IMG/VR virus record: IMGVR_UViG_3300028048_000047
Span: 96,001 to 160,000 of that record
Origin: a virus
Taxonomy: Duplodnaviria > Caudoviricetes
Length of the DNA: 64,000 nt
Reading direction: 5' to 3' (one strand)
This document shows positions 18,792-60,754 of this stretch, piece by piece (the stretch's first letter is position 1; every line of letters begins with the position of its first letter). The notes under the pieces were generated by a model, which worked only from the letters and a program-made list of their open reading frames with translations, was not told the DNA's origin and did no database searches. Both the position numbers and the translations under genes were made by a program.

Positions 18792-19103
18792 ATGGTATCT
18801 AAAAAAAGATTTAAGATGGAAACAATTGGAAATACAATGTTACCATTTATTGTTGATATTACTACTGCAAAAATGAAATCAAATACAATAACTACTTATC
18901 ATACATATGAAACACATAGAAAAGAAAAATGTTTAGAATTAGTTGATTTGTTAAATGAGCAACATGAAACAATCCAAAAATTAGAAGAATATTCGCAAAG
19001 GATAAATGAAACACTTCAATCATTTTCAAAAAGAGATTTAACAGATATTGAAAGAATATTTTTAAATAATCTTTGTAAGGAAATAGGTGTTGATTTAGAA
19101 TGA
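18792..19103 (+). CDS. array-family protein (MVSKKRF)
   Basis: head + VDLLNE. Confidence 0.7.
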   Translation: MVSKKRFKMETIGNTMLPFIVDITTAKMKSNTITTYHTYETHRKEKCLELVDLLNEQHETIQKLEEYSQRINETLQSFSKRDLTDIERIFLNNLCKEIGVDLE

Positions 19104-19297
19104 CTAAAAAACAACAGAATAAATTAAAAATATATTTAATATGGGAACGCCACAATGGTGTTGAGCGAAGGTTGAAAACTGGTTATATGGATAAGAAGTC
19201 TGCTTATAAGAAAGTAGAAGTCTGGAATAATCGGGAGAAGAAAGAAGATTGTGGGCATAGGTATTATGTTCGTGAATTTGAAGTGTATAAGAATTAA
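19100..19297 (+). CDS. hypothetical protein, paralog of 42829..42987
   Basis: YLI.E.HNGVE.RL.TGY..AYKKVE.WNNREK shared. Confidence 0.7.
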   Translation: MTKKQQNKLKIYLIWERHNGVERRLKTGYMDKKSAYKKVEVWNNREKKEDCGHRYYVREFEVYKN

Positions 19298-19319
19298 TTA
19301 AAAAATGGAGGAGTAGTAA

Positions 19320-19604
19320 ATGACTGAAAAAAGAATGGTGGATTGTTTGAGATATACTGGTGGGGCAAAATGTCATTTTACTGGTGAATTTTGTAATGAT
19401 GAGTATGCACAAACTTGTGAAGATTATAAGTCAGAAGATGGATTGTATGAGTGTCCCTATTGTAATTTGAAAGGATTAAAATTATTAGATTATGGGTCTG
19501 ATAATGTATGGGAATGCTTACGGTGTGGGGCAGAATTATGGTTTTGTGAAAGTGTCGGTGAGATGCAACAAAGATGTAGGGAAATTAGAGAAAAGAGAGA
19601 GTGA
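19320..19604 (+). CDS. MTEKR-headed Zn-ribbon protein
   Basis: CPYC..WECLRCG. Confidence 0.7.
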   Translation: MTEKRMVDCLRYTGGAKCHFTGEFCNDEYAQTCEDYKSEDGLYECPYCNLKGLKLLDYGSDNVWECLRCGAELWFCESVGEMQQRCREIREKRE

Positions 19605-22600
19605 ATTCTTATGGGAGGATAAGAAAATTTAAGATGGGGGTGATGGATGTTATTGGTTTTATTGTATTTGTATTAGTAGTAGTGTTCTTGCTTTTGATGG
19701 TGTTTGTGTTGGTAAGGGATATGTTCTTCCAGTAAAAAAATAAATATATGAATGGTGGTGTTATTAATGGATTTATTGTTTGATATGTTGAATAAACGGC
19801 AAGAGTTTGTTCAATCAAAAATAGAATATCTTAATAGTATTAATGATTTTTATAATAATACTATTAAGGACTTGAAATTGCATTTTAGGGGTAATAGATT
19901 ATATTTGACTTTTAATTCTTGGGAAGAGATACCATCTACTATGACTATGGATTTTTGTAATGAGTTTGGTTATCTTGCACCGACTTGTATTTATAATGAT
20001 GCTTATGGATTGATAATTAGAACTTATAAATTTATTAAGATATTAAATTAAAAATAAATATTGTGGTGGTGATGTGATGTTGGAATTTCCACATAAATTA
20101 AATATTAATAATAAAGGTATAGTTAAACGGTATAATACTGTTGAGAAAGGTGAGTCTAATTGGTGGTGGGTTTGGTATGATGGTGATTATCTACCTACAT
20201 CAACTGTTGTTCATAAATTAAATGATTTAACTGATGAGAATATTAAGTTACAAGCAGAGAATGAAGTGTTAAAATCAAGAATAAAAGAATTGACTTCACA
20301 GTTAACTGAAACTGGAAAAAGGGAGTAACTGATAAAAATGAATGGTCGGAGTTATAATAAGTTTATGATAATTTTATTGTTATTACTAATTATAGGTCGG
20401 ATAATATTATCTTATTTCAATATTAATTGGGTGAGAACTGTTAGTGCTTATGATTTTATAATAATTGTAATATTATTTTTTAACTGTGGTGTGTATTTTT
20501 CAATGGATTTCATCGATTAAGTAAAAAAAAGAATGGGTGAAAGAAAATAATGAATGGTGGTGAAAAAATTGGTTAATTCTATTGATGTTCCAGTTCTTAA
20601 AGTTGATAATATACCTGAAGAAGCATTAGATGAGATATATGAATTTCATGAAAAAATTAATAAAAAATATGAAGGTTATCGTATAGATAATGATTTAAAA
20701 ATGCAGTTAAATCAAGATGTTATTTTATTTAACCGTAAGATACAAGTAAAATATGATGATTGGCTTAAACCTACTGTGAAATTAATTGGAAATCTTGCGT
20801 ATCATAATGTAGAATGGGTATTGTCTGATGTATTACATGAGCATGAAAAATATTGTAATGAAAAACACGAAATAAAAAAACAATATACTCGAATTGAAGT
20901 TAATAATATGTTATTTGATTTACAGATAATTGATAGAATTCGTAATTATTCTTGTGTTGCATTACCTTATAGTTGTACAGAAGAATATAATAATAAGATA
21001 TTTCCACATGATGAAAACATAGAAGTGGAATGTAGATATTAATAAAAATGATGGGGGTTTTGAATTTGTTTGAAAATAAAAGATTTATTGGTAAGTATGA
21101 ATGGCCTGAAACAAAAGAGAATATGTTAATGGGGTTATGTCCTATGAATTATCATAATATATCAGATAATGATTGGAGTTTTGGAGATGCAGAAAAATTA
21201 CATGCACAAGGTTATCATGAAGAAGCTAAACAAGTAAATGAAATACTTGGAGATAGATTAATTAAATGGACAAAAGCCCATGAAGAAGAGTTTGAATTAT
21301 ACTATACATATGACACAATAATAATTCAGACAGAAAATATTTTAGAATGGAATGAAGAATTACATGATGAACTATGTGATGAGTTCAATGTAATATTATT
21401 GGAACACAATAAATTGAAAACATACCAACATGATAATTTTAAATTGAAATACAGTTATATTTACATAGCATGGATAGATACTAATCGTATTCATGAACTT
21501 GAAAAAACCAAGAAGAAGTATAATCTTAACTGGAATGAAATTAAATTTTAAAGGATGGATGGTATTATAGACAATAAAGGATTTAAGTTAAAATTATGCT
21601 TAAATAAATTAATGAAAGAGAATGAAGAGTTAAAAAAAAGAAATGATAATTTAACTGTGGAAATTAATGAGTTAAAAAATCAAGTTATTAAATTATATGA
21701 ATTCTTAACTTCAAATGGTTATGAAAATGATGAGTTTAATGTTTGGTTTATAAATGAAAAAATTAATAGATATATTCATGATAATACTATTGAAGTTGAT
21801 GAATTACCATTATATGGTAATGAAATGTTAATTTATCAATTACCTAACAAATTACAATATATCTATTTTAAAAAAAAATGGGAATGTATTGGTGAATTGG
21901 AAGATTAAATGATATTAATGAAAAAGGAGTAGTGATGGAAATGAGTATTAATAATTTTTGGGGTGACCATGTAAGTGGAAGAATTATAGAATTAACAGAT
22001 ATTATTTGGGAAGATAATTCTGAAATATGTATTCGTGAATTACCTTTACAAGAAAATGGTAAATATGGGTCACCCCAATTATTATTATCAGAAAAACCAT
22101 CTGATGACTGTTTAGAGAAACTTCGTGAAATGTATCGTATACGATTTTTTAAAAATGATGATGTTAATGATGATTATAAATATTTAATGACTGTGGAAAC
22201 TTTACGATTTAGTTTTGAAGAAGATTGGCATTGGAATGGTGTAAGAAACGATAAGATACAATCATTATCCAAAGAAATATTGAATAATCAATGGGATTTT
22301 GATGGGTATTTTTATATTACTGATGAATTAAATAGTTATCGTAAACTTGCAGTAATACCATTTAAACAAAGTACTGACCTTGATAGTGGATTTAATTTAG
22401 AGAGAAGTCAAGCATTAACATTAGTTAAAAATATTGTGAAAAAATTGAATGATGGGGAATTTATAGTATAAAAAAACAGTTGGACTGTATTAAGGATAGT
22501 ATAAAAAAAATATGGGACGATAAAATGATTGGTGAGTTAATAAGTTTATTAATATTTTGTGTTACATTTGTGCTTACATTCTCATTATTAAGTCATATAG

Positions 22601-22735
22601 AGCATTTAATGTGGAAGGATTGGTTTTACGGGAAAAATAGTTGGTGGAACATACTCTATAAAAATAGATAATAAAAAAATGGTACGGGACAGATATTGGA
22701 AGCATTTTTAAGGCATTTGATAAGGAAGTGGAAGA

Positions 22736-23197
22736 ATGAATGAAAAACGATATTCTCATGATGCTATTGTTATAGTAGACCATTTAAAAAAAGATTTAAT
22801 TTATATCGATGGTAAAGATGAATTATTGGAACTTGCAGAATATGTAGATATATTACAAGAAGAGAATCTGAAATTAAAATCATTTATTAAACAGAAACAA
22901 TGGACTGGTGGAATAGAAATGACTGAAAAACGATTTATAATTGATGTTGAAGAAACAACACAAGAAAATGCTTTATTTGAAAATGGTAAATTCGTTTGTT
23001 TTGAAGATGATACTGATGAGTATTTGAAAAAAATAAATGAAATGTCAGATGAAATTGTACAGTTAAAACAATTCCAAGAACAAGTTACAAGTGTTATTGA
23101 AAGTAAAATGGGTGATAATGTATGCAATGATTACAAAATGGAAGTGTTGAAAGAGATATGGGACGAATTAGAATTAGATGAAGTGTGGTTTGAATGA
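22736..23197 (+). CDS. in-frame fusion of two array cassettes (second head at 22919)
   Basis: MNEKRY..ENLKLK..WTGGIE-MTEKRF. Confidence 0.7.
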   Translation: MNEKRYSHDAIVIVDHLKKDLIYIDGKDELLELAEYVDILQEENLKLKSFIKQKQWTGGIEMTEKRFIIDVEETTQENALFENGKFVCFEDDTDEYLKKINEMSDEIVQLKQFQEQVTSVIESKMGDNVCNDYKMEVLKEIWDELELDEVWFE

Positions 23198-23464
23198 GTG
23201 AAAAACAATTCAAAAAGATGTGGGATAATCATTATGAAAACATTCTAACAATTGGTAACCTAAAAGAAGTAATTAAAGATTTAAATGATGATTTACCAAT
23301 AGAATGTAGTGTTCATAAATTAGATAATACTTACATTATTAAAGAAGCATCTTTATGTGGTAATATGGTCGAAGAACCTATCTTACAATTAGAAATTAAA
23401 ACGGATTGGGAACTAACTGAAAGAGATGAAAAAGCATTTAAAGAATGGTGTAAGGTGGAAGATA

Positions 23465-23803
23465 ATGACTGTAAATAAACGATTTAAAGGTGGACAAGGG
23501 AAGGTTAGTGATGTTGGAGAGGATTTAATATTTAAATTATTATGTTTAATTGCAGAGGAGAATCAAGAGTTACGAACAAAAAACAATACTTATATTCAAG
23601 ATATAGAAACATATAGAGAAGAAAATACTCATTTAAAGTTAGAGAATGAAGAGTTAAAGAATAATATGAAAATTAAATTATGCAATAACTGTATTTATTG
23701 GCGATTGGGTACTGCGGGTCTTAATGATAATTATTGTAGTTTAACTGATGAATGGGCAGATTGGGAAGGGACTTGTGAAAAATGGAAGGGTTATCATGAC
23801 TGA
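23465..23803 (+). CDS. array-family protein (MTVNKRF), Cys tail
   Basis: Head shared with 25494. Confidence 0.75.
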   Translation: MTVNKRFKGGQGKVSDVGEDLIFKLLCLIAEENQELRTKNNTYIQDIETYREENTHLKLENEELKNNMKIKLCNNCIYWRLGTAGLNDNYCSLTDEWADWEGTCEKWKGYHD

Positions 23804-23909
23804 AAACGATTTAAAGAAGTTATTTTCACATGGATAGATAGTGGTGGTGAATATCATTATGAAAGAAGAATTGTTAGGGATATTAAAAAAGAAAAGGAGT
23901 TGAAAAAAG

Positions 23910-24221
23910 ATGATTGAAAATGCACGATTCCTATTTGTCATTGACAATGGAGAACCAACATTTTATGATTTAAGTAAAAAAGGCAAAACAATGGATATGA
24001 ATGAAACAGAAGATATGTTAAATGAGTTAAACAATGAGAATAATGAATTAAAACAATTCCAAGAAAAAGTATTTGATTGGATTGATAAAGAAATTTCTCA
24101 AAATGAAGAAGCAATTGAATGGGGAGAAAAGCAAGGTGCAGATGTGGGTGCAATGGGTTTTTATACAAATATGCTTAAAATGTTCCAAAAGGATTTTGCA
24201 GATGGACAATACAATAAATAG
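23910..24221 (+). CDS. array-family protein (MIENARF)
   Basis: Tail shared with 43486. Confidence 0.75.
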   Translation: MIENARFLFVIDNGEPTFYDLSKKGKTMDMNETEDMLNELNNENNELKQFQEKVFDWIDKEISQNEEAIEWGEKQGADVGAMGFYTNMLKMFQKDFADGQYNK

Positions 24222-25292
24222 TTACCATGATATTTTAAAATAGAGGCACGAAAATGAATGATGAGAGATTTTGTATTTATAGTAAATCAACTGATAGTAA
24301 TGTGTATGATAGAGTTGAAGACCAATATTATAGTTGGGATACTATTGTGGATTTATTAAATCATATAATTCCAAATGATGCAGATGTTTTAGAGTTGTTG
24401 GATATTCATATTGAAAATAATAAAACATTAAAAGAAAAACAATTGGATTTTATTGTTAATTTATTATTTGATATTCGTTGTTATAGTGATGTGCATTATA
24501 ATGAATTATTGGGTGGTGAATTAGCAAGAGCAGAAGCGTTAGGGTTTAATGTTGAAGATTCAAAAAATTGGGATTATGATGAAGAAAGTTATGAATTTTG
24601 GAAAAAGAAGTTACAAGAGTGAGTGGACGGGAGGTGTTGGAAAAATGAATTATGAAGAAAAATACACTTGTAAAAAAATTGAAAACCCAGTAACAAAAGA
24701 AGTAAATAATTATATACAATATAATGATACCACTATATTAAAATTAAATTCAATAACTGATTGTAAGAATGTATGTCAATTATTGAATAGACTTGATGAT
24801 ATAATTGAGGATTATAAATCTTCAATTGAATTAAAAGAAGAGGGGATGGTGTGTAAAAATGATATATGGGATACTTGGGAGTTGATTAAACCAGTTGCAA
24901 ATATGGTTTTATGGAATTGGGGATTAAAATTAGTAGGTGCAAATGATTCTTATAATCTTATTTGTTTTGATACTGAAAAATTTGAAAAAAAATTAATTGA
25001 AACAATTGAAATTAATAAAATGGTTTAAATAAAAAAAGTATGGGTAAATGAAAGTAAAGGATTTCCTTGTTAATTTTGTGAAATTGGAGGATTAAATTAT
25101 GAGTGAAGAAAATATACATATGAATTGTGAGAATTATAATCCTAAAAGGGATATGTGTCTTAAATGGTTTGAAGAAAATGTGTCAGAGAAATATAAGATT
25201 TGTAAAGAATACTCTGAATTTGATGATAAAAAGTTAAGTATGAAATGGAGTAATTAAATTAATGAAATGTTATTGTAATTTAAAGTTTAAAA

Positions 25293-25307
25293 CGAAACAT
25301 TTATATG
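25293..25307 (+). promoter_or_regulatory. archaeal BRE-TATA promoter (CGAAA-CA-TTTATATG)
   Basis: Shares TTTAAAACGAAA with the 12687 promoter. Confidence 0.7.
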
Positions 25308-25493
25308 TGATGATTTACTAATAATGTAATAGTAAGTCAAAAGAATAAAATAAATTTTAAGGAGTGAAAGAAATGACTAAAAAAGTGATATTTGAAATGG
25401 ATGTATTTGAATTGATTGAGTGGATAAATAATAATCCGTTAACTATGGCTTATTTATATGCTCTTGAAAGAAATGGTATTTTAGGTGGAAAGA

Positions 25494-25757
25494 ATGACTG
25501 AAAATAAACGATTTAAAGGTGGACAAGGGGAAGTTAGTGTTGTCAGGGAGAATTTAATATTTAAATTATTATGTTTATTTGCAGAAGAGAATCAAGAATA
25601 TAGGGAAGAAAATACTCATTTAAAGTTAGAGAATGAGAAGTTAAAAAATGTTATAGTATTTGCTTATACACTTATGAGTCTGAACACTATTTCAGATGAA
25701 GAATATTCTGAGTTTTATGAGTTATGTGAAAATATGGGGGTGAGTTTGAATGACTGA
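25494..25757 (+). CDS. chimeric array-family protein (head of 23465 + tail of 25750)
   Basis: Direct alignment. Confidence 0.8.
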   Translation: MTENKRFKGGQGEVSVVRENLIFKLLCLFAEENQEYREENTHLKLENEKLKNVIVFAYTLMSLNTISDEEYSEFYELCENMGVSLND

Positions 25758-26082
25758 AAAATGGATTATTAAAAATGGAGAAATTGTAGATACAACCAAT
25801 AATATAACCTTTGATTCATTCATGGAAATCATAATAGTGCTAAACGGACAATCAAGACAATTAACTCAAATGTCAAAAGAAAATAAGAAGTTAAAATCAA
25901 TTTGTCAAGACCATCGTGACCATGCAATTGATTTTAAAGCAGATTGTGTAAGATTAGAAAAAGAGAATAAAGAGTTAAAAAATATTATATTATTTGCTTA
26001 TACACTTATGAGTAAAAACACTATTTCAGATGAGGAATATTTTGAGTTTTATGAGTTATGTGAAAAAGTAATAAAACAATAG
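25750..26082 (+). CDS. array-family protein (MTEKW)
   Basis: FAYTLMS.NTISDEEY tail. Confidence 0.75.
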   Translation: MTEKWIIKNGEIVDTTNNITFDSFMEIIIVLNGQSRQLTQMSKENKKLKSICQDHRDHAIDFKADCVRLEKENKELKNIILFAYTLMSKNTISDEEYFEFYELCEKVIKQ

Positions 26083-26093
26083 GATTTGTAAGA

Positions 26094-26645
26094 ATGATTG
26101 ATTATAAAAGTATAGCCGAATTTTATTTAGAAATTTGTAGTAGAATATCAAAAACAATTTATGAAGCAGAACAAAATGAAAAAACAAAGGAAGATGCTAA
26201 AAAAGATTTTGATAGTATGTATTGGAGTTTTGATAGAGCAAAAAGTAGAGCGCATGATGTTTTACAAATGCACAAATATTGGAATGAAAAAGACTTTGAA
26301 CACTATGGTTTAGAACAATTATCCAGTACAAGACATCGTATAGAACATTTTTTAGAAGATTGTTTACTTACTTACCCTGATTGTTGTTATACTTTTGATA
26401 AATATGATGATATAATTATAGATTATTATAAACCTATTAGATTAAATGGGGGTCAAGAACATCATGAAAAATGGAAAAAATATTATAAATTGAACCATAA
26501 AAGGATTATGATTAATTACGGGTTAGTTAGGGATTTGAAAGGAGCATATGATTATGTGAAAGATGATGAGAAACACTTAATTGATGAAATGATGAAATTA
26601 TGTAAGAAATTAGAAGGTTATGATGAAGAAATGGCAAACGATTGA
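26094..26645 (+). CDS. hypothetical protein
   Basis: 183-aa ORF. Confidence 0.65.
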   Translation: MIDYKSIAEFYLEICSRISKTIYEAEQNEKTKEDAKKDFDSMYWSFDRAKSRAHDVLQMHKYWNEKDFEHYGLEQLSSTRHRIEHFLEDCLLTYPDCCYTFDKYDDIIIDYYKPIRLNGGQEHHEKWKKYYKLNHKRIMINYGLVRDLKGAYDYVKDDEKHLIDEMMKLCKKLEGYDEEMAND

Positions 26646-26663
26646 AAAGGAGTTACAATAGGA

Positions 26664-26918
26664 ATGACTAAAAAAAGATTTGAGATAAATAATCTTGTAA
26701 AAAAAGGCACTATGAGTTTTTGGGATAATGAAAGCAAAGCAATTTTAAATGCAAGTCATACACTTGATTTATTGAATGAATTATCAGAAAAGAATGATGG
26801 ATTAAAAAAAGACTTGTTTGAAACAAGAAAAGATTATTTGATTGAAACTGCCGACATCTCCGATAAATTATATTTGGACGAGATGATTGAAAATGAACGA
26901 AAGGAGATATTTAAATGA
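26664..26918 (+). CDS. array-family protein (MTKKRF)
   Basis: RKEIFK tail shared with 48368. Confidence 0.75.
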   Translation: MTKKRFEINNLVKKGTMSFWDNESKAILNASHTLDLLNELSEKNDGLKKDLFETRKDYLIETADISDKLYLDEMIENERKEIFK

Positions 26919-27355
26919 AGGAATGTTGTGCAAATTGTCAATATTTCAGATTATTAAACGATTTTGAAATGTATTGTACTAAAAAGGAGAGTTATACATT
27001 TCATTTGAATATTTGTGAAAAATGGAAAATGATGAGATAAAAATAATGACTGAAAAAAGATTTACATTTAATAGTGATACTGTTGCAACAAATTTAAAAA
27101 CACCTATTGTTTATGATAATAAAATAATGAATATATGGGAAGTATTAGAAAAATTAAAAATGGAGTTGAAACTATGACTGATAAACCAATTGTTCCTCCC
27201 GAACAATTTCTATATACTCTAATCAATCAGATGATGGATAAATATGAATCTCATCCATTAACAAGAGCTGTATTTGAAATGGGCTATGTTAAAGAAGGTT
27301 ATAGGTTAGATTGGAATAAAAGATTAGATGAAAATGGAGAATGGAGTTGTAAAAA

Positions 27356-27631
27356 ATGACTGAAAATAAACGATTTAAATATTCATATTCATTGGAAAAA
27401 GTATATGACTGCGATACTTTCAATGGAGAAACAACAGAAAGTTACGGGACATTTGAATGTTGTGATATGTTAAATCAGTTAAATGATGAGAATGAGCAAT
27501 TAAAATCTGAAAACAGAAATCTTAAAATCACTATTAGTGCAAGAGATGCATTAATTGAAGTTTGCGAGGAAAAATTCAGGGAATTAGGATTCATTATAAC
27601 TGTTGATGATAATGGATATGTGATAGAATGA
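27356..27631 (+). CDS. array-family protein (MTENKRF)
   Basis: LNDENEQLK. Confidence 0.75.
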   Translation: MTENKRFKYSYSLEKVYDCDTFNGETTESYGTFECCDMLNQLNDENEQLKSENRNLKITISARDALIEVCEEKFRELGFIITVDDNGYVIE

Positions 27632-27732
27632 CTGAATATTATATATATATATATGGATACAGAAGATAAATTACCTGCTATTCTCCCAAAATATAATTAT
27701 TATTGTACCTACAAGAATGAGGAGGAAGATGG

Positions 27733-28209
27733 ATGACTGAAAAACGATTTTATGTTGATAAAAATGGGGATTTTAGAGATACCAAAACTGGTAATATTAT
27801 AGTTGATTTTGGTTATTCCTTTAATGGAATGGACTGCAAAATGATTTTAGATTTGTTAAATAAGTTAAATGATGAATGCGAGTTTCTTGAAATTGAAAAT
27901 GAATCATTGGAAGATGGTGCAACAAAATATGCAGAATTATATCATAAATCATTAAAAGAGAATGAGGAGTTAAAACAACAATTAAAAACAAGAGTAATTG
28001 TTAATAAACAGTATGAAGAACTCCAAAGACTTAAAAAAGAGAATGAACAGTTAAAAAAAGTATTAGGTGCAATATTACTTGAAGTGAGAAGAGATATTTC
28101 AAATACGAATCAAACTGGTGAAATAAAAGTATTTATCAATCCTAATAGTTTTGATTTAATTAGTGAAGTATTAAAGAAGTATGGAGCATTAAAGGGATGG
28201 TATGAATGA
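27733..28209 (+). CDS. array-family protein (MTEKRF)
   Basis: Head domain near-identical to 43486. Confidence 0.8.
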   Translation: MTEKRFYVDKNGDFRDTKTGNIIVDFGYSFNGMDCKMILDLLNKLNDECEFLEIENESLEDGATKYAELYHKSLKENEELKQQLKTRVIVNKQYEELQRLKKENEQLKKVLGAILLEVRRDISNTNQTGEIKVFINPNSFDLISEVLKKYGALKGWYE

Positions 28210-28511: not shown

Positions 28512-28721
28512 CTGAGATAGCATTAAGTTGTATTGATTGGGCTATCCTATTATTTGAAATGTTAATTGCTATGATTATCTTTGCAATCGTGAAAGGATGG
28601 TATGATAGTAGAAGATGGGAAAATCATATTTATCAAATATTGGAGGAATATCGTGCTAAATATGGGGTAGATAGTGGTTGTGAACTGTTATTGTATAGGA
28701 AAACAAATAATGAGGTGGAAG

Positions 28722-31735: not shown

Positions 31736-31768
31736 ATAATGAAATATGTGTTATGGTTGGTGATTTGT

Positions 31769-36540: not shown

Positions 36541-36555
36541 CGAAACATTTATATA
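36541..36555 (+). promoter_or_regulatory. archaeal BRE-TATA promoter (CGAAA-CA-TTTATATA)
   Basis: Canonical motif in an intergenic gap. Confidence 0.72.
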
Positions 36556-49376: not shown

Positions 49377-51534
49377 ATGAATGAAATTTCAATTGACATT
49401 ACAAAACTCAGCATTAAACCATACAATTGCACATATTATTGTCCTCGGACATTATTATCAAAAAGTAATTGCATCGGATATTGTCAAATGGGAAATAATG
49501 ATGTAAAATATTGTAAAGGTTCTTATTGTGAAGAATATGAGAAGAAGGAGGATTTTGAATGACTGAAAGAAGATTTATTTATACATTTAAGAAGAATGGT
49601 ACGATGGTTATTATTGATAAAAAAGATAATGTTTTAATTCGTGATAAATATCGTGCTTGTGATTATTTAAATAGGTTAAACAATGAGAATGAGCAGTTAA
49701 AAGAAGATTTAGATTATTATAAAAAAAGAATAAAAGAATTAGAAATTGAAAATCAAAGACAATCTGATGCAATTGATGGATTACAAGGATTTATAACCCA
49801 TTACGATTGGAGGATTTAGAATGACTGAAAAACAGTTTATATATAACAGGTGTGAAGATGGATTTTATGATATAATTGATATAAAAAACCATCATGCTTA
49901 TCCAATAGGTAATATGGAAATATTTATTATTGGAATTGTTGAATTATTAAATAATTTAGCAGAAAAAAATAAAAACTTGAAAAAAAAGAATGAGCAGTTA
50001 AAACAATTACTGTTACAATTCTATACAGAAGATGAAATTAATGCAGAGATGATTTGAATGATTTTGAAAGTTCTGATGAAATGGAGAAAATGGATTAAGA
50101 TTATGAGATACTGTTTAACAGTAAAAAATCTTATTTATGATTTTTTAGGGTGTTAAAATTGAATTTTTGGTGGAAATGTATTTATCTTCAATATCATAAT
50201 CATTTACCTTTGTGTATGAATCCTAATTTGTATATGACTAAGCGTAGGCGTGATTGTTTGATGAGTGATTGTGATTGTATGGTTTTTGAAGGTGAGCATA
50301 AAAGTATTATGAGGTGATTAGAATGACTGAAAAAAATGTTTCAAATGAAAAAATGACCGAAAAAAAATTTGTTGCAATGTATGTTGTTGATGGAGAGATG
50401 GCAATTGTTGATACTCACACTACAACTGCTTACTATACCATTGGTGAAATTGAAAAGTTATTGAATGAACAACAAGAAATTATTGTTAAACAAGCCCAAA
50501 AGTTAATAGAATTAGACAGATGGTAAAAAAGGGAGTTATGAAAATATGATGGAAAAGACAAAGTTAATTTTCAAAGATGATGTGATAAACGGATATAAAC
50601 ATTATATTAATTTTAAAAGAGATTTTAGTGGAGCATTAGCAGTATTTGAAAAATATATTTTACCAGCTTATGCGGATATTGGTATCGATGCAAATAATGA
50701 CTGGTTAATATTAACTCTTCAATATGATACTGAAATGGAAGATTATCTTGAAATATTAAAGCAAGATTGGAATTATTTAACTGAATTTTTGAATAATGAA
50801 GGTATCCAATTTTCATATCCATCAATGTATGATGATTGGAGCATGGTGATTCCAATTGATGATTTTGTTGAATGGGTGCTAAAAAATGACTGAACTATAC
50901 GGTAAACAATACTACTCTAATCTCATTACAGATAACATACAAGTACATTTAGTTAGAGTATTACTGCGACAAGATATGAATAATCAAATATGGAAAACAA
51001 TTTCATCAAAAATATCAGTAAAACCCACTTATAATAAAGAATGGATTACAAAAGAATTGGATTTAGATGACGATGAGATTACAGTTACAATAACTACCAA
51101 AAAAGGTAAAAAAATCGAGTTTACTAAAAAATTAGAAATATATACTCCTACTGATGAAGAGTTAAACGAATGGGATAATACTCATGATAAGAAATTTGTT
51201 AGTCGAATGAGATGTCCTCCTGCCGATGAGGTTGGTGGGAATACTGGGGTATTAAGGTGATTGTGAATGACTGAAAAACGATTTAAGCTTGTATATATTG
51301 ATGATGATGATGAATGGAGTTTATATGATTCTGTTGAGGGAAAATATTATAATATAGACCTTACAATGTATCAAAAGGAGATAGAAAGGTTAGAGAGAAA
51401 TCATAAAAACTTACATGAAAAATATGAAGAAATAGAAAGGAAATACAAAGAGTATTATCGTAAATATACTCAAATAAAGAATAATATCAATAGTGCGAAA
51501 CGAATTTATTTAAATTTGAAGGAGTGCTTTGAGA

Positions 51535-51849
51535 ATGGCTAAACGATTTAAAATTACTCAAAAGGGAGATTTGTTTACAGTTAGAGATGTTGTTGAAAAT
51601 AAACCTATGGGAGTATTTGAGTTTAAAGAAAATGAATTTCCAATATATGCTTGTTTTCATCGTATAATAGACTTGTTGAATGAGTTAAACGATGAGAATG
51701 AGCAGTTAGAAGAAGGATGGAAAAGATGTAGAGATTGGCTAAATTCTGATAAATATGATTATGAATTGACATTGGCATTTATCAAAAACAAAGGATATTC
51801 ATTAAAAGATGTGCTTGAATATGAAAAGGAGTTGAAGATGAATGACTGA
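51535..51849 (+). CDS. array-family protein (MAKRF)
   Basis: FIK.KGYSL tail shared with 52446. Confidence 0.75.
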   Translation: MAKRFKITQKGDLFTVRDVVENKPMGVFEFKENEFPIYACFHRIIDLLNELNDENEQLEEGWKRCRDWLNSDKYDYELTLAFIKNKGYSLKDVLEYEKELKMND

Positions 51850-52155
51850 ATTTTTAGTATCTTTTGAGTTATGGACAATTTTATATATTCTTATTCTTGT
51901 TCCACTTTGTACTTTTTTAATTGTTTTTGCTTATAGAATTGCAAAAAGTTTAGAAATAGGATTACTGGAACGATGGAATCGTAGAATTGTTAATCAAAAT
52001 AAAAAAGTGATTATGGAAAATATTAAAGTTTCAAATGAATTGATTGATATGCAGTATCAATTAAGAAAAGAATTAGAACTGACTAAAAAGGATTTAAAAA
52101 AATACGAAAGATGAAATTCAAACAGAATTGATGTAAAATAGGAGTTGCAAATGAA

Positions 52156-52449
52156 ATGGTTGAAAAACGATTTGAATATAATGTGAATAAGAACAGTATT
52201 GAATATGATGGGAAACATTTCACATACTGCAATGTGGAACAGTCAAAGATTGCAAAGAAGTTGAATGAGTTGCACGAAGAAAACAAGGAACTCAAACAAT
52301 TCAAAAAATCAGTATTTGCTTTGATAAATGAGAAAATAACATTTGTAAATGAATGTGAGAAGAATCATAACGATATTGGAATACCTCATGAATACTATCG
52401 TGGAGCAGATGAAATATTGAATTTATTAAAAAAGGAGTTAGTGGAATGA
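52156..52449 (+). CDS. array-family protein (MVEKRF)
   Basis: LNELHEENKELK. Confidence 0.75.
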   Translation: MVEKRFEYNVNKNSIEYDGKHFTYCNVEQSKIAKKLNELHEENKELKQFKKSVFALINEKITFVNECEKNHNDIGIPHEYYRGADEILNLLKKELVE

Positions 52450-52931
52450 CTGAAAAACGATTTAAAGAACAAAATCTTGAAAATCATTTGAATAGAATAT
52501 ATGATACTACAAAAGGGGGAGTTGTTTTTGATGAAGATATTGTTGATTTGTTGAATGAGTTACACGAAGAAAATCAAACATTAAAAAATAAGTATGAGAA
52601 ATTACGAAGGACTGGTGCAAGTCTTGGAGTAGAAAATGATGGATTAATATCTGAAAATTATGAGTTACAAAAAGAGAATGATGAATTAAAAAAAGAGATT
52701 ACTTCATTAAAAGTTGAATTAGATACACATAAACACCCATTATGGAGTACAAGAGAATCTGAAAGAATAGTTAATGAACTCAAACAAGAAAATGAGAAGT
52801 TAAAACAACAATTAACTCATTGTAGAAAACTGTTAAATGATGATTTAGATATTGCATTAGAGTTTATTAAACATAAAGGATATTCATTACAAGATTTAAA
52901 AGATTACGAAAAGGCGATGCAGAATGACTGA
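52446..52931 (+). CDS. mosaic array-family protein
   Basis: Modules shared with 40544 and 51535. Confidence 0.8.
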   Translation: MTEKRFKEQNLENHLNRIYDTTKGGVVFDEDIVDLLNELHEENQTLKNKYEKLRRTGASLGVENDGLISENYELQKENDELKKEITSLKVELDTHKHPLWSTRESERIVNELKQENEKLKQQLTHCRKLLNDDLDIALEFIKHKGYSLQDLKDYEKAMQND

Positions 52932-53355
52932 AAATAAACGATTTGGTTTTGAAATGGATAAAAACTGTTATAAATGTATTGTAGATATTCGTGATAAAAA
53001 ATTGTATACTGATAAAAAACAAGTTGTTGGTTTGTTAAATCAGTTAAATGATGAGAATGAGCAGTTAAAGACAATACGAAGCGATTTAATCTTTGAATTA
53101 GATATATTAATGCAAAACTGGGAAGCACTTGATAAAGAGAAAGATGAGCAACTTGATAAACAAAATCACACATTAAAAAAAATAAAAGGAGAAAATGAGC
53201 AGTTAAAACATAATAATAAAATGTTATCAATGAAAATGAGCGAAGTATATACTAAATATTGTTTATTAAATGAATTTAGTGATGATACAAATCCGAATGA
53301 TGCAGTTAAAAGAATTTTATCTGAATTAATGCAAATAACAAAAGAATATAGGTGA
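52924..53355 (+). CDS. array-family protein (MTENKRF)
   Basis: LNDENEQLK. Confidence 0.75.
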   Translation: MTENKRFGFEMDKNCYKCIVDIRDKKLYTDKKQVVGLLNQLNDENEQLKTIRSDLIFELDILMQNWEALDKEKDEQLDKQNHTLKKIKGENEQLKHNNKMLSMKMSEVYTKYCLLNEFSDDTNPNDAVKRILSELMQITKEYR

Positions 53356-53822
53356 TGATTTGAATGGCTGAAAAACGATTTAAAGTTACAAATATTTCCT
53401 CAAATGGTATGACAGGATTATTTTGGTTAGGAAAAGATAAGTTATCAGTATATGATGTGGTAAAGTTATTAAATGAATTATTTGAAGATGTAAAAAGATT
53501 GGAAGAAGAGAATGAGCAGTTAAAAAATCAGAATGAATTATTATCTGATGAATTAGAGCAATGTAAAGCAGTAATTGATTACCGATGGAGCGAATACTTA
53601 AAGAAAAAAGAGGAGCAAGAGAATGACTGAGAATAAACGATTTACTGTAAAACAATTAATCAAATATCTTGCAGATTTCAATCCTAATGCAGTGATAATG
53701 AATAATATTAATCCAAGTTGGTTTACTGGAATGGGAGAAGAACAAATAAGAAATATTGAAAATGAAAAATTGAATGCCTCAAAAGTATGGTTATTTGATG
53801 ATGATGAAGAGAGGTTTTGAAA

Positions 53823-54164
53823 ATGACTGAAAAAAGATGTACCGATTGTAAACATACAAAAGGAATAGGATATGATTTTTGGTGTGGTGAGGGTCATACT
53901 GAATATGAAGTTTTCGGAGCAGAAACAAACTGTCCGTATTATGAATACCATGATTGGAGTAAAGACACTCCAAGTAGAACTGAAAAACAATTATATGAGG
54001 TAATCAACAAAGAAGAACCACGAGGACAATCAGTAACTTATAAAGACATTCCTTGTACTACAAGAACTTGTGTTACACGATTAAATAAATTAACAGAAGA
54101 AAATGAACAATTACAAAAGAGAATAATGATATTACAAGATAAACTAAAAGGACTGATGAAATGA
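53823..54164 (+). CDS. Cys-rich cassette fused to a second head remnant (RTEKQ)
   Basis: CTDCKH..WCGEGH..RTEKQ..LTEENEQL. Confidence 0.7.
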   Translation: MTEKRCTDCKHTKGIGYDFWCGEGHTEYEVFGAETNCPYYEYHDWSKDTPSRTEKQLYEVINKEEPRGQSVTYKDIPCTTRTCVTRLNKLTEENEQLQKRIMILQDKLKGLMK

Positions 54165-54335
54165 CTGAAAAACGATTAAAATTATCTGATATTTTTGATG
54201 TTGAAATTGTATTACACGATGGGAAATTTTTTTATGAATTGGAATTTGAGGATTATGTTCTTGAACAACCATCTGATTTTCCAGTTAAAGCAGTATTGAA
54301 AAAAGGTAAATTTATAACAAAAAAAGAGGCATTAT

Positions 54336-54773
54336 ATGACTGAAAAACGATTTACTTGGAATAGTAAAGAAGTAGTGATTGATGATAATGTTACTGGAAA
54401 TCAATTAGAAGTGATGGATATTACTGAAATTGATGTACTTATTGATTTGTTGAATGAGTTAAATGATGAGAATAAGCAATTACGGAACGAAAAAGAACGA
54501 TATAAAAGATTAAGTGAAATTAGACAACAACAAATAGATAATCGTATTCTTACAATTAAAGAATTTATAGATGATTGTTCTGACAATAAAGTTAGAAGTG
54601 CATTAAAAGAGTTATTTTATTCAGAAGTAAATGAATATGATTTATCTTCGGAAAATAGAAAATTACTTAATGAGAATGAGCAGTTAAAAAAAGAATTAAA
54701 ATCTTTTAAACCAATTATTTTTGAGAGTGATGGGAAACCAGTTACATTATACAAAAAAGGTGATGTGGAATGA
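54336..54773 (+). CDS. array-family protein (MTEKRF)
   Basis: IDDNVTG + DLLNELNDEN. Confidence 0.75.
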   Translation: MTEKRFTWNSKEVVIDDNVTGNQLEVMDITEIDVLIDLLNELNDENKQLRNEKERYKRLSEIRQQQIDNRILTIKEFIDDCSDNKVRSALKELFYSEVNEYDLSSENRKLLNENEQLKKELKSFKPIIFESDGKPVTLYKKGDVE

Positions 54774-55102
54774 CTGAAAAAAGATTTATATATTGTTTTG
54801 AAGGGATTGAAGATAAATGGGAAACTGTGGAGGAATATAAATATACTCCTTGTACCAAAGATGGTTTTCAAGATTTATGTTATATGTTGAATGAGTTAAA
54901 CGATGAGAATGAACAGTTAAAACAAACTATATCTGATTGGATGGGTTCTTATGATGGATTGTATGAAGATGTAAAAAGATTAGAAAAAGAGAATGAGAAT
55001 TTTAAAAAAGCATTACGGATTGTATATTCAACAAAATTAACTGAACCTACCAAACATACTATTGAACAAATAGCAAAGCATTGCAGGGTTGATTTAGAAT
55101 GA
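54770..55102 (+). CDS. array-family protein (MTEKRF)
   Basis: EDVKRLE.ENE shared with 53364. Confidence 0.75.
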   Translation: MTEKRFIYCFEGIEDKWETVEEYKYTPCTKDGFQDLCYMLNELNDENEQLKQTISDWMGSYDGLYEDVKRLEKENENFKKALRIVYSTKLTEPTKHTIEQIAKHCRVDLE

Positions 55103-55514
55103 CTAATTTAGAAATGGATAGAAATGGTTATTATGTGTGCAATGGAGTTTCTTGTCCGAAATGTAAAGCACGATTAGAAGAGTGTAGAGAAGTAGCATAT
55201 GCTAATGGTGAAGTGTATAAAGAATTTGATTGTGTTGAATGTGATTTTACTGGGAGATTAAGAAAAGGTAATCTTTACATTGACTTATGATGGTGATGGA
55301 ATGGCTGAAAGATGGATTGGTGCAATAGAAACTTTTAATAAAAATCATCAAGATGTTGAAATTTGTTTGCCTGATGGGAAAATTATTTTTGATTGGGATA
55401 ATATTGAGAGTTATTTTAAATTAAAACAATTGATTTTTAATTTTGCTAAAAATGAATATGGGGAAAAAATTCGGCAAGATGACCCAGAAGAATGGATGTT
55501 GATAGGTGAATAAA

Positions 55515-55982
55515 ATGACTGAAAATAAACGATTTATAGTTAAGGATATATGGATTAAAGATAATTGTATTGGGACATTGTTGAATATTGATTTTAACAC
55601 TATTACTGATGCTAATTTATGTTGTGGTCTATTAAATCAGATTGAAAAAGAAAAGAGGAATAATGGTAAACTTGCAAGTAAATTATTAGAAAAGAATGAA
55701 CAGTTAAAATCCGAAATTGAAAAATTATCTTATACTAATGAAGATTTACTTGAAGAAAAAAGAATTTGGAAACAAATGTCAGATGAATACACAAAATTAT
55801 CTGATGATATTGAACAGTTAAAAAAAGAATTGAATATATATACAAGGATAGCAACTTGTAGTAATTGTAAATATCAAGATTATGACTGGTTTGAAGATGG
55901 TGATGAATTTGAAATTTGTAAAAAAGGAAATAATAATCAACAAATAGAATATCATATTTGCAAAGAATGGGAGGAATTTTGA
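55515..55982 (+). CDS. array-family protein (MTENKRF) with CxxC tail
   Basis: Tail shared with 46809. Confidence 0.75.
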   Translation: MTENKRFIVKDIWIKDNCIGTLLNIDFNTITDANLCCGLLNQIEKEKRNNGKLASKLLEKNEQLKSEIEKLSYTNEDLLEEKRIWKQMSDEYTKLSDDIEQLKKELNIYTRIATCSNCKYQDYDWFEDGDEFEICKKGNNNQQIEYHICKEWEEF

Positions 55983-56146
55983 AAATGACTGAAAATAATA
56001 AACGATTATGGTATATCATGTGTTATTGTAATGATAAAATTGAAGCAGAAAATAAAGATGAAGCATATACAATATTCTGTAAAAAACACAATTTTAAAGA
56101 AGAAAATGCACAATTTGTAAGTTATAGTAGAGTAAAGGTGGATTAA

Positions 56147-56623
56147 ATGACTGAAAAACGATATTATGAGAAAGAATACGGTGAAGAATATTATATTTTT
56201 GACTCTGAAATTTTAACTGAAAAAGACTTTGATGAAAAAATAGAATATGAAGGATATAAAACATTTGAAGATAGTTTAACTGGTGAAGAAATTGTTGATT
56301 TATTAAATAATAATGAAAAATTAAACCGAACAATACAAGAATTATACCAATTCCGATTATTATATAATGCACATTTATTCAATGAATGGGCAGAAAATGG
56401 GAAATATGAAGTTTATAAATCAAGGAAACATGATAATGGTGAAGAATGTTTTGATGGTGAATGGTTCATAGTTATAGCAATATTACCAACTGGACAAATA
56501 AGCAACCATTACCATATAAAAGATTGGGATTTATTCAAAATACCATCACTTGATAAAGTTAAAGATAAATTTGATGGTCATACATCAACTGATGTGTTGG
56601 ATAGATTAAAAAATCTATTATAA
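56147..56623 (+). CDS. array head module fused to a WDGH-type conserved phage domain
   Basis: ELY.FR..KSRKHD.G..WFIV..LPTGQISNHY..WDLF..FDGHT..DVLDRL. Confidence 0.7.
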   Translation: MTEKRYYEKEYGEEYYIFDSEILTEKDFDEKIEYEGYKTFEDSLTGEEIVDLLNNNEKLNRTIQELYQFRLLYNAHLFNEWAENGKYEVYKSRKHDNGEECFDGEWFIVIAILPTGQISNHYHIKDWDLFKIPSLDKVKDKFDGHTSTDVLDRLKNLL

Positions 56624-57416
56624 AATAATGGAGGTTAAATATTTATGAAGAAAAAAATAATTAAAAAAATGGAAGATGAATATGGAACATATTGTCCACA
56701 ATGGGGACATTATGAATTAGTATCTGAACCTTTTGAAAGGAGTATTGTGGTTAATAAAAATAAGAAACTAACAAGAGAAGAAATATTAGAACAGATATAT
56801 GAGCATATAAATGATGATATTATTGATGATGAAACTGCATTTTTAAGACACTTAATAATGAAATGGACTGGAAAACAATTTAAATGTAATGATTATGGTT
56901 TAAACTGTTTAAAATGCCCATATTGGAATCATTATACAAATTACTGTACAAAATATAAAATATATAGTGAAACTCATGAATGATAAAAAAATTGAAGTGG
57001 GAAATAAAACAAAACATTAATAAGAGTATTCAAAAAAAAAGAATTATTTGTGAAAAAGGAGATGGATGAAAATGTTGAAAAAACTGTATAGAATTAATAA
57101 AGATTATAAACAATTAAAAAAACAATTAAATGAACAAACATCAAAATCAGAAAATAATAATAAAACAGAAAAAATAAACATAACCCATAAGGAATTAGAA
57201 TACATCATACAGACTTTTAGAGATTTACATAATTTATCCTACTCCGAAACATTATTAATCAAAGACTTCTGCAACAACCTAAAAGAAGATAAAAATACAT
57301 TATTCCTCATACAAGAAGAAAAATGATTAAACCTCTATATTAATAAAAGTACAAATAATAATTTTTATTAATAAAATAAAAAAAAACACATACATATAAA
57401 AAAAATATATAAAATC

Positions 57417-57556
57417 GATGGACATACATCCAAAACTGATGTGTTGGATAGATTGAAAAATTCATTTATAAGTAATGGATGTTAATATTTATGAATAAAA
57501 AAAAATAATTAAAAAAATGGAAGATAAATATGGAACATATCATCCACCCAATGGGA
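57417..57556 (+). repeat. degenerate ~140-bp copy of 56573-56706
   Basis: Shared GATGG.CATACATC..ACTGATGTGTTGGATAGATT..AAAATGGAAGAT.AATATGGAACATAT. Confidence 0.8.
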
Positions 57557-57803
57557 GTTACAATTATGAGATTTAAATTAAAGAATCATGAATTGATGGA
57601 TTTGAAAACTGGTAAAATTTATATTAATAAAGATGAAGCAATGATAAATACGATAAATTTAATAGTTGATGAACTTGATAAACTGAATAAGGATAATAAA
57701 GAGTTAATGGGGTTAATAAATGATTTGTCGGAGGATTGTAGTCGACATTTAAATGATATTGATGAAAAAATTAATAATATTGATAAAAGATGGGTGAATG
57801 TGA

Positions 57804-58118
57804 ATGACTGAATTAACTGATAAAGAAAAAGCATTATTGATTTTGGAAAAATCAAGTGAAGAATTTACTAAATGTACAACAGAAATTAGAAAATTACAAG
57901 AATCATTATATGCTTTGAATTGTGCATTTGAAAATACAAGTAGACTACTTAATAGATACTTTAACGAAGAGGAAAACGGAGGCAATATTCATAAAAACTG
58001 TGAATGGTATAATCCTGAAAAAGATTATTGTAGTAATTATATGATGGGAAAGTATACTGGTTTGGCTTTTAATGTTTCAAAAAATAAGGAATGTATTAAG
58101 GATTTGGTGGATGAATGA
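57804..58118 (+). CDS. MTELTDKEKALLILEK protein, copy 1
   Basis: Paralog of 58408. Confidence 0.75.
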   Translation: MTELTDKEKALLILEKSSEEFTKCTTEIRKLQESLYALNCAFENTSRLLNRYFNEEENGGNIHKNCEWYNPEKDYCSNYMMGKYTGLAFNVSKNKECIKDLVDE

Positions 58119-58407
58119 CTGAAAAACGATTTTTTATTTTGAAAGATGAAAAATTTAAAGATGTTTTACCATGTATAAGGGATAGAAATTCAAAAATAGA
58201 TGATATTTATGGACATTATAAGTATGATGACATCGAACAAATATGTTTATTCTTAAATGAGCAAAATGATGAAATTGAAATGTTAAAATCTATTAAAAAA
58301 ATTATACAAAATTATAATACTAATGAATATAAGCATTCATCAGATGCTTTAACAGATATTATGGACATACTTGAAAAATAAATATCTAACTTTAAGGAGT
58401 GGTTTTT

Positions 58408-58725
58408 ATGACTGAATTAACTGATAAAGAAAAAGCATTACTCATATTAGAAAAAGCAAAAAATGCTTTCAATGAATGTGGTAAACAAGTAAGGGAAACT
58501 CAAACTGCTTTTAGGGGGGAATTAACATCAGCAGTTGAAACTGCAAATGATAATCTTAAAAGAGTCTTGAATGAAGAGGAAAATAATGGTAATATTCATA
58601 AAGATTGTAGATGGTATAATCCGAATAAGGATTCTTGTAGTAATTATATGATGGGGAAATATACTGGTTTGGCTTTTGAAGTAAGTAGACATGATAAATG
58701 TATTAAGGATTTGGTGAATGAATGA
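58408..58725 (+). CDS. MTELTDKEKALLILEK protein, copy 2
   Basis: Paralog of 57804. Confidence 0.75.
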   Translation: MTELTDKEKALLILEKAKNAFNECGKQVRETQTAFRGELTSAVETANDNLKRVLNEEENNGNIHKDCRWYNPNKDSCSNYMMGKYTGLAFEVSRHDKCIKDLVNE

Positions 58726-58907
58726 CTGAAAAAAGATTTACAATAGTTAATATGGGATTGAATGGACAATATATAAAAGAAAATGGAAAAATAATAACAA
58801 TAGAAAGAGTTGTCGATTTATTAAATGAGAACGAGCAGTTAAAGGATTTCATACGAAAAGAATTTCCCAAAAATATCATATAAACATATCCATTAGGAGG
58901 TTTTTGA

Positions 58908-59366
58908 ATGAATATGGAAAAAATGACTCTTGAAGAAAAACTTGAATATTACCAAAGACAAACTCATCAACTTAAAAAAAGAAGAGATGATGCTAATGAT
59001 AAAATAGAATATTTAAATAGTTATATTAAAGAATTACATCAAGAGATTAATAATTTAAAATCTGAAAAACGATTTAAACAAGTTGTTGATGGTGTTAAAG
59101 ACACAAGAACTGGTAGGACTTTAACACACCCGTTAGACTTTACTTTGAAATTGAATGAACTTAATACCTTATATGATTATGTTTTTGATAGGAACGAAGA
59201 ACTTGAAAAAAAGAATGAACAATTAAAACAACAATTATCAGATATTAAGGGACAATTAGTAATGTTGGATAACTGTGACAATTGGGATTATGACCGAATG
59301 AAACATACTGTAAGAGAGATTGCAGAAATAATTGGTTATAATGGAACAATAAACCCTAAAATGTGA
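58908..59366 (+). CDS. coiled coil fused to an internal array module (SEKRF)
   Basis: Internal TCTGAAAAACGATTT. Confidence 0.7.
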   Translation: MNMEKMTLEEKLEYYQRQTHQLKKRRDDANDKIEYLNSYIKELHQEINNLKSEKRFKQVVDGVKDTRTGRTLTHPLDFTLKLNELNTLYDYVFDRNEELEKKNEQLKQQLSDIKGQLVMLDNCDNWDYDRMKHTVREIAEIIGYNGTINPKM

Positions 59367-60077
59367 TGTGCAATGACCGATGAAGATTGTGATAAAATTA
59401 TAGAATTATGTTGGTGGCATTTAGGAACTTGTGAATTAGCAGATTGTATTATAGATTCTTGTGATATAATGTGTGGTGATATGGAATGATTGTTGATGGT
59501 ATAAGTCTAATAATGGGGGGAATCTTTGGTTTCATAATAGGCATAGCATTAGTAAAAGACAAATATAGGAAAGAATGTCATAGATTAGAAGAAAATATTA
59601 TCAGATTACAATATGATGCCCAAATAACTAAATACAAAAATCAGAGGTGATGAGGAATGACTTGTCAATTTGAAGATAGTACAATGATTGATACTCATTG
59701 TAAAATCAAAATATGGAATGATGGATTTGAGGACACTTACTGTCAAACTGGTTGTCCTTTAAAAGAGTTAAAAGGGGATGTGGAATGACTGGAATTGATG
59801 ATTTAATTATATGCCCACGATGCTTAAAACCTATGGGGGAAGAAGTGGATACAATGGTTTGTCAATATTGTGAGTATAATGAAAAAGAAAACAATGAACT
59901 TGAAAAAGGAAAGAAATTTGATAAGGAATTGGATTAAATGAGCAGTTTAACAGATATTTATGTAATTCATCAAATAACTGGATTACCGTACACAAGCATA
60001 ATAACTATAAGCATTATTGGATTTATAATACTATGCCCAATAGTGATTTTTTTAGTGAAGAAGAATGGAGAATTATT

Positions 60078-60557
60078 ATGACTACGAATAAACGATTTAC
60101 TGTTAAACAAAGGCAAGGTACAACAATTTACAGTATTATAGATTATTATGGAGAATTACCTTTAAGTGAAGGAATGTACTATAAAAGCAATGCGAATAAA
60201 CTATGTGAATGGTTAAATACTCAACACGAATTGTTAAATACTTTGTATAATGAGAATGATGAGTTAAAAGCAAGTAATGAAGGTCTTTTAAAAGATTTGT
60301 ATGATAGGTTTAAACTTATCAAATCAGTAGAAAAAGAAAATCAACAATTAGTTAAAATGCTTGACAATGTAACGAATTATATACAAAGAGAACATAAAGA
60401 AATTCCAATTGATGATTTTGTGGAATGGTGGAATAATATAGCAACAGAAGGATTAGAAGATGATAATAGTGTTAATGAAAATAAGATTAGAAAAAGAAAA
60501 GTTAAAGCAGATGGTAAGGTGGATTATGTAGGTATTTCAAAGGAGGATTTAGAATGA
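60078..60557 (+). CDS. array-family protein (MTTNKRF)
   Basis: First ~140 nt near-identical to 45202. Confidence 0.8.
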   Translation: MTTNKRFTVKQRQGTTIYSIIDYYGELPLSEGMYYKSNANKLCEWLNTQHELLNTLYNENDELKASNEGLLKDLYDRFKLIKSVEKENQQLVKMLDNVTNYIQREHKEIPIDDFVEWWNNIATEGLEDDNSVNENKIRKRKVKADGKVDYVGISKEDLE

Positions 60558-60754
60558 CTGAAAAATATTACTTAGTAGTAGAAATAAGTGGAAGTTTAGC
60601 CAAAATGTACGACAATATAAGTGAAGAAAATATAATGGATGTTAATGAAACCGTAAATAAATTAAACGAACTAACCCAAGAAAATCAAATTCTTAAAACA
60701 GAAAATATCCTATTGAAAAAAGAATTGAAAAAAATGACTGAAAAACATTCCTAA
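60554..60754 (+). CDS. last array cassette, ending in an in-frame empty head (MTEKHS*)
   Basis: ATGACTGAAAAACATTCCTAA at 60734-60754. Confidence 0.7.
   Translation: MTEKYYLVVEISGSLAKMYDNISEENIMDVNETVNKLNELTQENQILKTENILLKKELKKMTEKHS

Follow-up and report, generated by a model that had tools for sequence, protein, structure and literature searches.

A 44-kb array of small genes in a tailed archaeal virus

The window that we analyzed, a stretch of 64,000 nucleotides, is bases 96001–160000 of a viral record of 195,936 bases. The genome encodes terminase, portal, PCNA, and a homolog of TFIIB, so this is a tailed archaeal virus. One relative of the terminase carries the label Methanobrevibacter, and the gene starts that we describe below are also clustered in genomes from that genus. 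Based on this label and these clusters, the host of this 196-kb virus is probably Methanobrevibacter.

The window contains an array of small genes (17002..60754, + strand) that spans ~44 kb. All of its ~147 genes are on the + strand, and 86 of them begin with a "dual-stop head," which has stop codons in both of the other reading frames. Within the array, heads are denser and nearer to their consensus from about 36000 to 60500. Genes in the array (taken as 17000–60800) were called with a model that was built for this analysis and that has no preference for heads; a few of the offsets of 4–6 nt may be misregistered.

Just past the array are genes for the TFIIB homolog (TFB; 61478–62188) and for a DEDD-type exonuclease (62266–62919), in unusually T-rich surroundings. 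At 12751–13707, the window encodes a 318-aa protein with internal repeats ~240 nt apart and a weak match to the DNA-binding domain of the Tn916 integrase. The large subunit of terminase is at C1:13375–15201 of the genome. Many of its close relatives are ~950 aa long and contain LAGLIDADG-type domains, which are probably intein insertions, and relatives are also found on contigs of up to 370 kb. A search for the terminase in viral contigs gave no match.

Dual-stop heads and the stops that are used

A preliminary description of the window proposed that the octamer ATGAnTRA is a universal linker for translational coupling. This motif occurs 149 times on the + strand of the window and 11 times on the - strand. 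The exact octamer ATGACTGA occurs 69 times on the + strand, never on the - strand, and once in the remaining genome. The two off-frame stops occur together at 86/147 array starts, as compared to 33/255 (13%) of the other viral genes (odds ratio 9.5, p 2e-21) and 13/287 (4.5%) of host genes from the genus Methanobrevibacter. So, the enrichment at array starts that the description predicted is there, instead of the equal frequency at host or ordinary starts that would have spoken against it. The enrichment also exceeds codon bias: among heads that were defined without using those bases, threonine at codon 2 is encoded by ACT in 41/41 cases, while ACT accounts for 48% of usage in the genome.

The common variants of the head were said to keep the octamer, which fails for MTD at 59373, with ACC and no second stop. 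The second stop is also absent from starts of the form MTT, MTG, MTV, MTS, or MTC. An internal in-frame head of ORF 50323, at window position 50353, has ACC at codon 2 and is the only strict-type threonine head in the window without the T of the second stop.

The dual heads provide the stop of the upstream gene at −4 in 31/86 cases and at −8 in 14/86. The other 41 are preceded by a separate stop, 22 of them at 0–15 nt upstream and 19 farther away. Since just 52% of the dual heads provide the upstream stop (and 48% do not), "universal" is too strong. For instance, the head at 43486..43503 (+) gives a −4 stop, and the upstream gene ends with ..LLK* (in full ..GLLK*, and not E* as originally described). 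The head at 52924..52944 (+), which is of the NKRF form, gives a −8 stop, and the upstream gene ends with ..QND*; the ..ND* ends that had been reported at 25750, 52924, and 53623 are correct. Heads that lose the first stop were expected to have a separate stop upstream. This is true of the MAE heads at 38594, 46012, and 53364, but other such heads (17809 and 51535) use the second stop. Considering all array starts, the upstream gene overlaps by −4 or −8 at 58/147 junctions and stops at 0–15 nt at 37 more; outside the array, 15/255 junctions have a −4 or −8 overlap. This geometry, in which a stop falls at about −8..+6 from the following start and the SD is intragenic, is the one expected for termination-reinitiation coupling.

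In-frame fusion of the upstream gene to the head was also described as a regular outcome, yet it accounts for only about 2% of heads: ~10 fusions among 512 heads are true, as half of the 22 listed are chance internal methionines. One of these rare fused heads is at 22919..22936 (+), within ORF 22736–23197.

The heads at 23796, 27628, 44839, and 60734 open stubs of only 6–14 aa, and three of these four act only as the stop of the upstream gene. We ruled out that heads are mostly dead stubs, as only 35/614 open ORFs of under 30 aa. We also rejected a designed three-frame stop, with TGA immediately preceding the ATG (19/84 heads vs. 12/235). T at −3 is not enriched given GA at −2/−1 (16/43, or 180/515 in relatives), which indicates that the TGA is a by-product.

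The octamer begins a longer repeat

The octamer forms the first part of an 18–21-nt DNA repeat, ATGACTGAA(AAT)AAACGATTT, which we call H. H occurs in dozens of rumen viral contigs. All of its synonymous sites are near-fixed, including across 423 distinct gene bodies from related rumen viral and metagenome contigs. For example, arginine is encoded by the rare codon CGA in 42/54 cases, as compared to a background of 5–13%, and in 365/423 of the relatives' heads. The match to the consensus falls evenly along H with no step after base 8, so we rejected the octamer as the minimal unit. The conserved unit is the whole repeat, and not the octamer as first described; synonymous sites that are unrelated to the stops are equally frozen, and the repeat's role in crossovers is taken up below. 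The fixed part of H starts with the ATG, preceded by degenerate bases. Unrelated gene bodies (membrane, Cys-rich, or WDGH) retain only the first 6–12 bases of H.

We also examined variation within clusters of the same gene. The sixth base (T6), which is synonymous and forms a stop, is polymorphic in 5/94 clusters, as compared to 44/155 for fourfold T sites in gene bodies (p 3e-6); it is ~5x less polymorphic than the fourfold sites of the same genes. Position 5 varies in 20/114 clusters and position 7 changes only between G and A (14/14). The third base of the arginine codon, which is neutral with respect to the stops, varies in just 1/41 clusters and in 4/353 heads. A15 is also conserved, without a stop rationale.

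A variant head, MTAKRF, has a rare GCG codon and no second stop. It is found on 12 unrelated gene bodies (at loci L356, L319, L313, L315, L330, L389, L399, and L415) and accounts for 4/5 of the heads in contig L356. Its spread over unrelated bodies is as expected from homogenization by exchange. At 59058 there is an internal remnant of a head, ..KSEKRF without an ATG.

Proteins encoded by the array

The main protein family of the array has a KRF strand, an LLN helix, and an ENEQLK coiled coil. A typical member is encoded at 47705..48034 (+), and its model has three short strands followed by a long helix (pLDDT 87). Matches to the family with E below 1e-10 form 464 clusters at 50% identity, and 88 of the 150 best profile matches begin with MTE. 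The array exposes a large uncharacterized protein family. Among the family members that we tested, Pfam found no family over the cutoff, and Pfam and PHROGs gave only weak matches that were unnamed or were to generic coiled coils. Fold searches with the family model gave a best Z of 6.0 in the PDB, no hits below E 0.1 in BFVD, and unnamed clusters in the Atlas, which does not show that the fold is new. We found no match by tblastn against annotated phage records or by exact-protein look-up among contigs, and no mention of MTEKRF in a literature search. At 56147..56623 (+), a head module is joined to a WDGH domain of foreign origin (PF25311, E 9e-30).

Exchange of modules at H and at a second repeat

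The array contains a second repeat, B (GAGAATGAGCAGTTAAAA), which lies inside the genes of the main protein family, where it encodes ENEQLK. B is frozen at rare codons (GAG and CAG) that are unrelated to its stops. One of its ~46 copies in the array is at 47252..47269 (+). We rejected hybrids of H and B as a pattern, as there is just one anecdotal case: the sequence at 40769–40790 (ENEQLKRF) is a possible B-to-H hybrid. Clusters of heads along with B repeats are also found in genomes of the genus Methanobrevibacter, at L194 (G034:C4 76.7–77.6 kb) and L195 (G007:C103). The head cluster in G034 is 5 kb from a terminase gene, which indicates a provirus. Three Methanobrevibacter loci were identified by a scan of the genome collection that was otherwise too loose to be informative.

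Among segments that are at least 85% identical between viruses, both partners' ends were at H in 38/74 cases and at B in 15/74, while random positions would give about 8% and 4%; because local alignments run through any shared motif, ends that are adjacent to a motif overstate the precision. The left ends of the shared segments are mostly at −3..0 of the ATG, and the right ends are at +8..+24 within the next head, which implies that the module is a gene plus the SD of the next gene. Exact identity at the joints often extends over only 4–20 nt, and the point at which it breaks varies from the SD to the end of the head.

The shuffling of genes that the preliminary description assumed is real: 85% of re-seen modules have different neighbors. 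Of the upstream modules seen again among 978 junctions, 88/104 have two or more partners, as do 97/114 of the genes seen again, in related loci that were collected by their head or B patterns, which favors consensus arrays. We also found two clean head-to-head indels, of 217 and 825 nt. Among pairs at B, 107/110 were recombinant, all of them in frame, as compared to 33/70 for control points in mid-gene.

Several modules in the window illustrate these exchanges. The segment from repeat B to the next head at 54672..54775 (+) is 98% identical to a segment of L022, a 42-kb virus, with unrelated sequence on both flanks. A head-to-head module at 55984..56157 (+), comprising the gene at 55985–56146 and the SD of the next gene, is 95% identical in L022 but has other neighbors there. 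From head to B, 47102..47289 (+) is 92–93% identical in L022 and L036, with a different tail after each. Overall, the sequence comparisons indicate that H is a recombination joint and that B is a second, in-frame crossover site.

There are also duplications within the array with their left ends at heads: 57804–58132 and 58408–58739, 42288–42417 and 59784–59907, 45199–45393 and 60075–60269, and 27733–27875 and 43486–43628.

The two stops buffer changes of frame

In 56/149 (38%) of the recombinant pairs of head junctions, the position of the ATG is offset by a number of bases that is not a multiple of three. Register changes were seen in 3/21 non-recombinant junction pairs and in 0/24 comparisons between coding blocks. 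The register-changed pairs cover 36 upstream modules, 27 of which have a partner that ends at a head stop. In 14 independent upstream modules, the stop switches between −4 and −8 in different viruses, and the longest read-through of a frame-shifted partner is +14, so the proposal that the two stops absorb frame changes at the junctions held up. For example, the head at 51842..51850 (+) acts as a −8 stop for an upstream module that, in L047, lies before the head of a different gene and ends at that head's −4 stop, with a 1-nt offset. The median worst-case read-through in the off frames is 8 nt in the array and 19 nt at other starts.

In Haloferax, coupling drops steeply with distance and fades within ~20 nt; the common overlaps are −4, −1, and −8 (PMC10666635). 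Across prokaryotes, −4 (ATGA) and −8 (ATGNNTGA) are the commonest and third commonest overlaps (PMC6728339, PMC10666635). Given these observations, frame buffering should keep termination-reinitiation working.

How modules might be exchanged

We think it likely that H is a shared crossover joint for exchanged accessory genes, with its two stops buffering the changes of frame. The SD, the spacer, and the 18–21-nt head would together form the joint at which Methanobrevibacter-type viruses exchange small accessory genes from a common pool. The exchanged unit runs from one head to the next, with the SD of the following gene at its 3' end, and repeat B swaps segments of the main protein family in frame. 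Crossovers at H would be imprecise or would occur within the variable SD-spacer, which would often shift the frame of the upstream gene relative to the ATG. The off-frame stops, aided by TGA or TAA in the SD and spacer, end the upstream gene no more than a few bases away from the start codon. Repeated exchange would homogenize the head, and the dual stop may have helped the head word to spread. This gives a concrete, countable mechanism for the exchange of accessory genes among rumen methanogen viruses, with genomes from 40 to 200 kb.

Recombination is probably by annealing at short, imperfect homology, carried out by a viral Erf-type protein or by host functions. The genome encodes an Erf annealing protein (C1:81476–82183), which together with an ERCC4-type nuclease at 2045..2704 (+) of the window is a candidate for the recombination machinery. 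Erf recombines diverged sequences, and the minimal segment for Red-beta is quoted as 23–27 bp (PMC3945230); the identity of 4–20 nt that is often seen at the joints is below that minimum. Erf is present in this genome and in the provirus G009 but was not found in three complete genomes with arrays (G001, G002, and G004). Among 84 non-structural proteins that we scanned, none was a reverse transcriptase.

Alternative explanations

The octamer could instead be kept by selection on the two stops as a coupling linker, with the rest of the conservation being secondary. The rarity of polymorphism at T6, the free variation of position 5 with only G/A at position 7 (which fits ATGAnTRA), and the short read-through in the array are in line with this. 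We nevertheless consider it unlikely: the stop-neutral third base of the arginine codon is equally fixed, the counts fit uniform homogenization plus a mutable C, the MTAKRF head spreads without a second stop, nearly half of the dual heads give no stop, and B is just as frozen at codons that have nothing to do with its stops. The equal fixation of B, which is in mid-gene, also argues against H being an mRNA element, such as an efficient initiation context or the site of a viral translational regulator (as proposed for the start-associated sequences, SAS, of mycobacteriophages), with shuffling following from homology. That idea would explain why H covers the start codons of many co-oriented genes in one region and why A15 is conserved, but we identified no regulator and the breakpoints already account for homogenization, so it seems quite improbable. 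We give similarly little credence to selection on MTEKRF as a protein N-terminus (as the first strand or as a tag for targeting or degradation), with identical DNA due to recent duplication. KRF does lead into the first strand of the confident model, and as noted above, 88/150 of the best profile matches begin with MTE. Yet rare codons are frozen even though the gene bodies cannot be aligned, position 5 freely alters the residue (T, S, I, or N), and bodies of the membrane, Cys-rich, and WDGH types retain no more than the first 6–12 bases of H. Selection on the N-terminus may be a second constraint on members of the family.

If H and B were the sites of a site-specific recombinase, then this would be an integron-like cassette array, perhaps served by two tyrosine-recombinase-like genes. 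These genes encode proteins of 272 aa (at C1:11491–12309 and 165862–166680 of the genome) and were not found in five related viruses. In favor of this are the genome's two weak matches to PF00589 (E 1e-6 and 7e-3, below the cutoff), the position-specific conservation of H, and the cassette-like units. Two complete genomes with arrays, G001 and G002, have no match to PF00589 and no homolog of this genome's tyrosine-recombinase-like protein (at the sensitivity of our search). Also, the register changes in 38% of the recombinant junctions, the position at which identity breaks varies, H and B have just ~6 bases in common, and by eye, neither has inverted arms. We therefore consider a dedicated recombinase very unlikely. 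It is extremely unlikely that the switches of partner are chimeras from metagenome assembly at the repeats, even though the relatives are mostly assembled contigs. The exact stretches shared at the joints are 4–20 nt, and the words used by assemblers are usually longer than this; the partners differ by several percent and by indels in the spacer; and heads are also present in provirus records and in host genomes.

Comparison with known systems

A close parallel is the PeSL cassettes of T4-type phages, which are likewise conserved elements that recur between the small and non-essential genes of hyperplastic regions. As in the array, recombination between the copies inserts, deletes, or swaps genes, and no dedicated recombinase has been shown (PMC2839356). 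PeSLs end in an SD and a start codon (PMC2839356). The array likewise has a repeated element between the small genes of a variable region, and genes are gained, lost, and swapped with breakpoints in the element. However, a PeSL is a ~100-bp intergenic promoter and stem-loop terminator (PMC2839356), while H is ~20–35 bp and largely coding. Also unlike PeSLs, H leaves the SD with the upstream module and contains stops in the other two frames. It has an intragenic counterpart in B, and viruses of 40–200 kb have it in common. Half of the heads overlap the upstream gene, which leaves no intergenic room for a promoter or terminator. In 38000–57500, sigma70-like and terminator-like sites were not above shuffles, in a scan whose models do not include archaeal promoters. 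Because it has no promoter-terminator element, the array does not belong to the PeSLs; it works like PeSL-mediated modular shuffling, as a distinct linker-mediated variant.

In integron cassette arrays, promoterless gene-sized units are reordered at a repeated joint. Phage cases have been described (PMC9892861). The array differs in that no attC-like hairpin was seen (by eye), no integrase is shared, and the junctions are imprecise. A cognate tyrosine integrase is absent from G001 and G002, and the matches in this genome are below the cutoff and not shared. Crossover is not at a single position, as the register is not the same within 56/149 recombinant pairs. Relaxed homologous recombination by Rad52-like phage recombinases, which include the Erf family, also yields mosaics bounded by short homology, but the substrates tested were longer than the 10–30-nt joints here (PMC3945230).

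The start-associated sequences (SAS) of Cluster K mycobacteriophages, as presented in the available part of PMC3203893, are also short asymmetric repeats in one orientation at the starts of many unrelated non-structural genes. But SAS are upstream and overlap the SD, with a proposed role in translation, whereas the fixed part of H begins at the ATG; that part of the report describes no crossover or stop function. MSTV1, a tailed virus of the methanogen Methanobrevibacter smithii, also has an array of small host-interaction genes, but the available part of PMC11375127 describes neither a start repeat common to these genes nor a joint for shuffling in its hypervariable region. Three features set the array apart: the frame buffering documented above, the pairing with a joint inside genes, and the sharing of its joints among viruses that differ greatly in size.

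We speculate, with more doubt than conviction, that H and B form a community-wide standard for assembly at two joints, in which a start word was selected as crossover site, start codon, and two-frame terminator all at once, alongside an in-frame joint. If so, then sloppy exchanges would stay translationally coupled, and the in-frame joint would build a combinatorial library of coiled-coil proteins for interacting with the host.

Overlaps of −4 or −8 are normally specific to a pair of genes, whereas here one word offers both at dozens of starts. The overlaps themselves are of the ordinary kinds, and the same gene is seen switching between them. These natural switches offer a ready system in which to ask whether selection for coupling acts on the geometry of overlaps.
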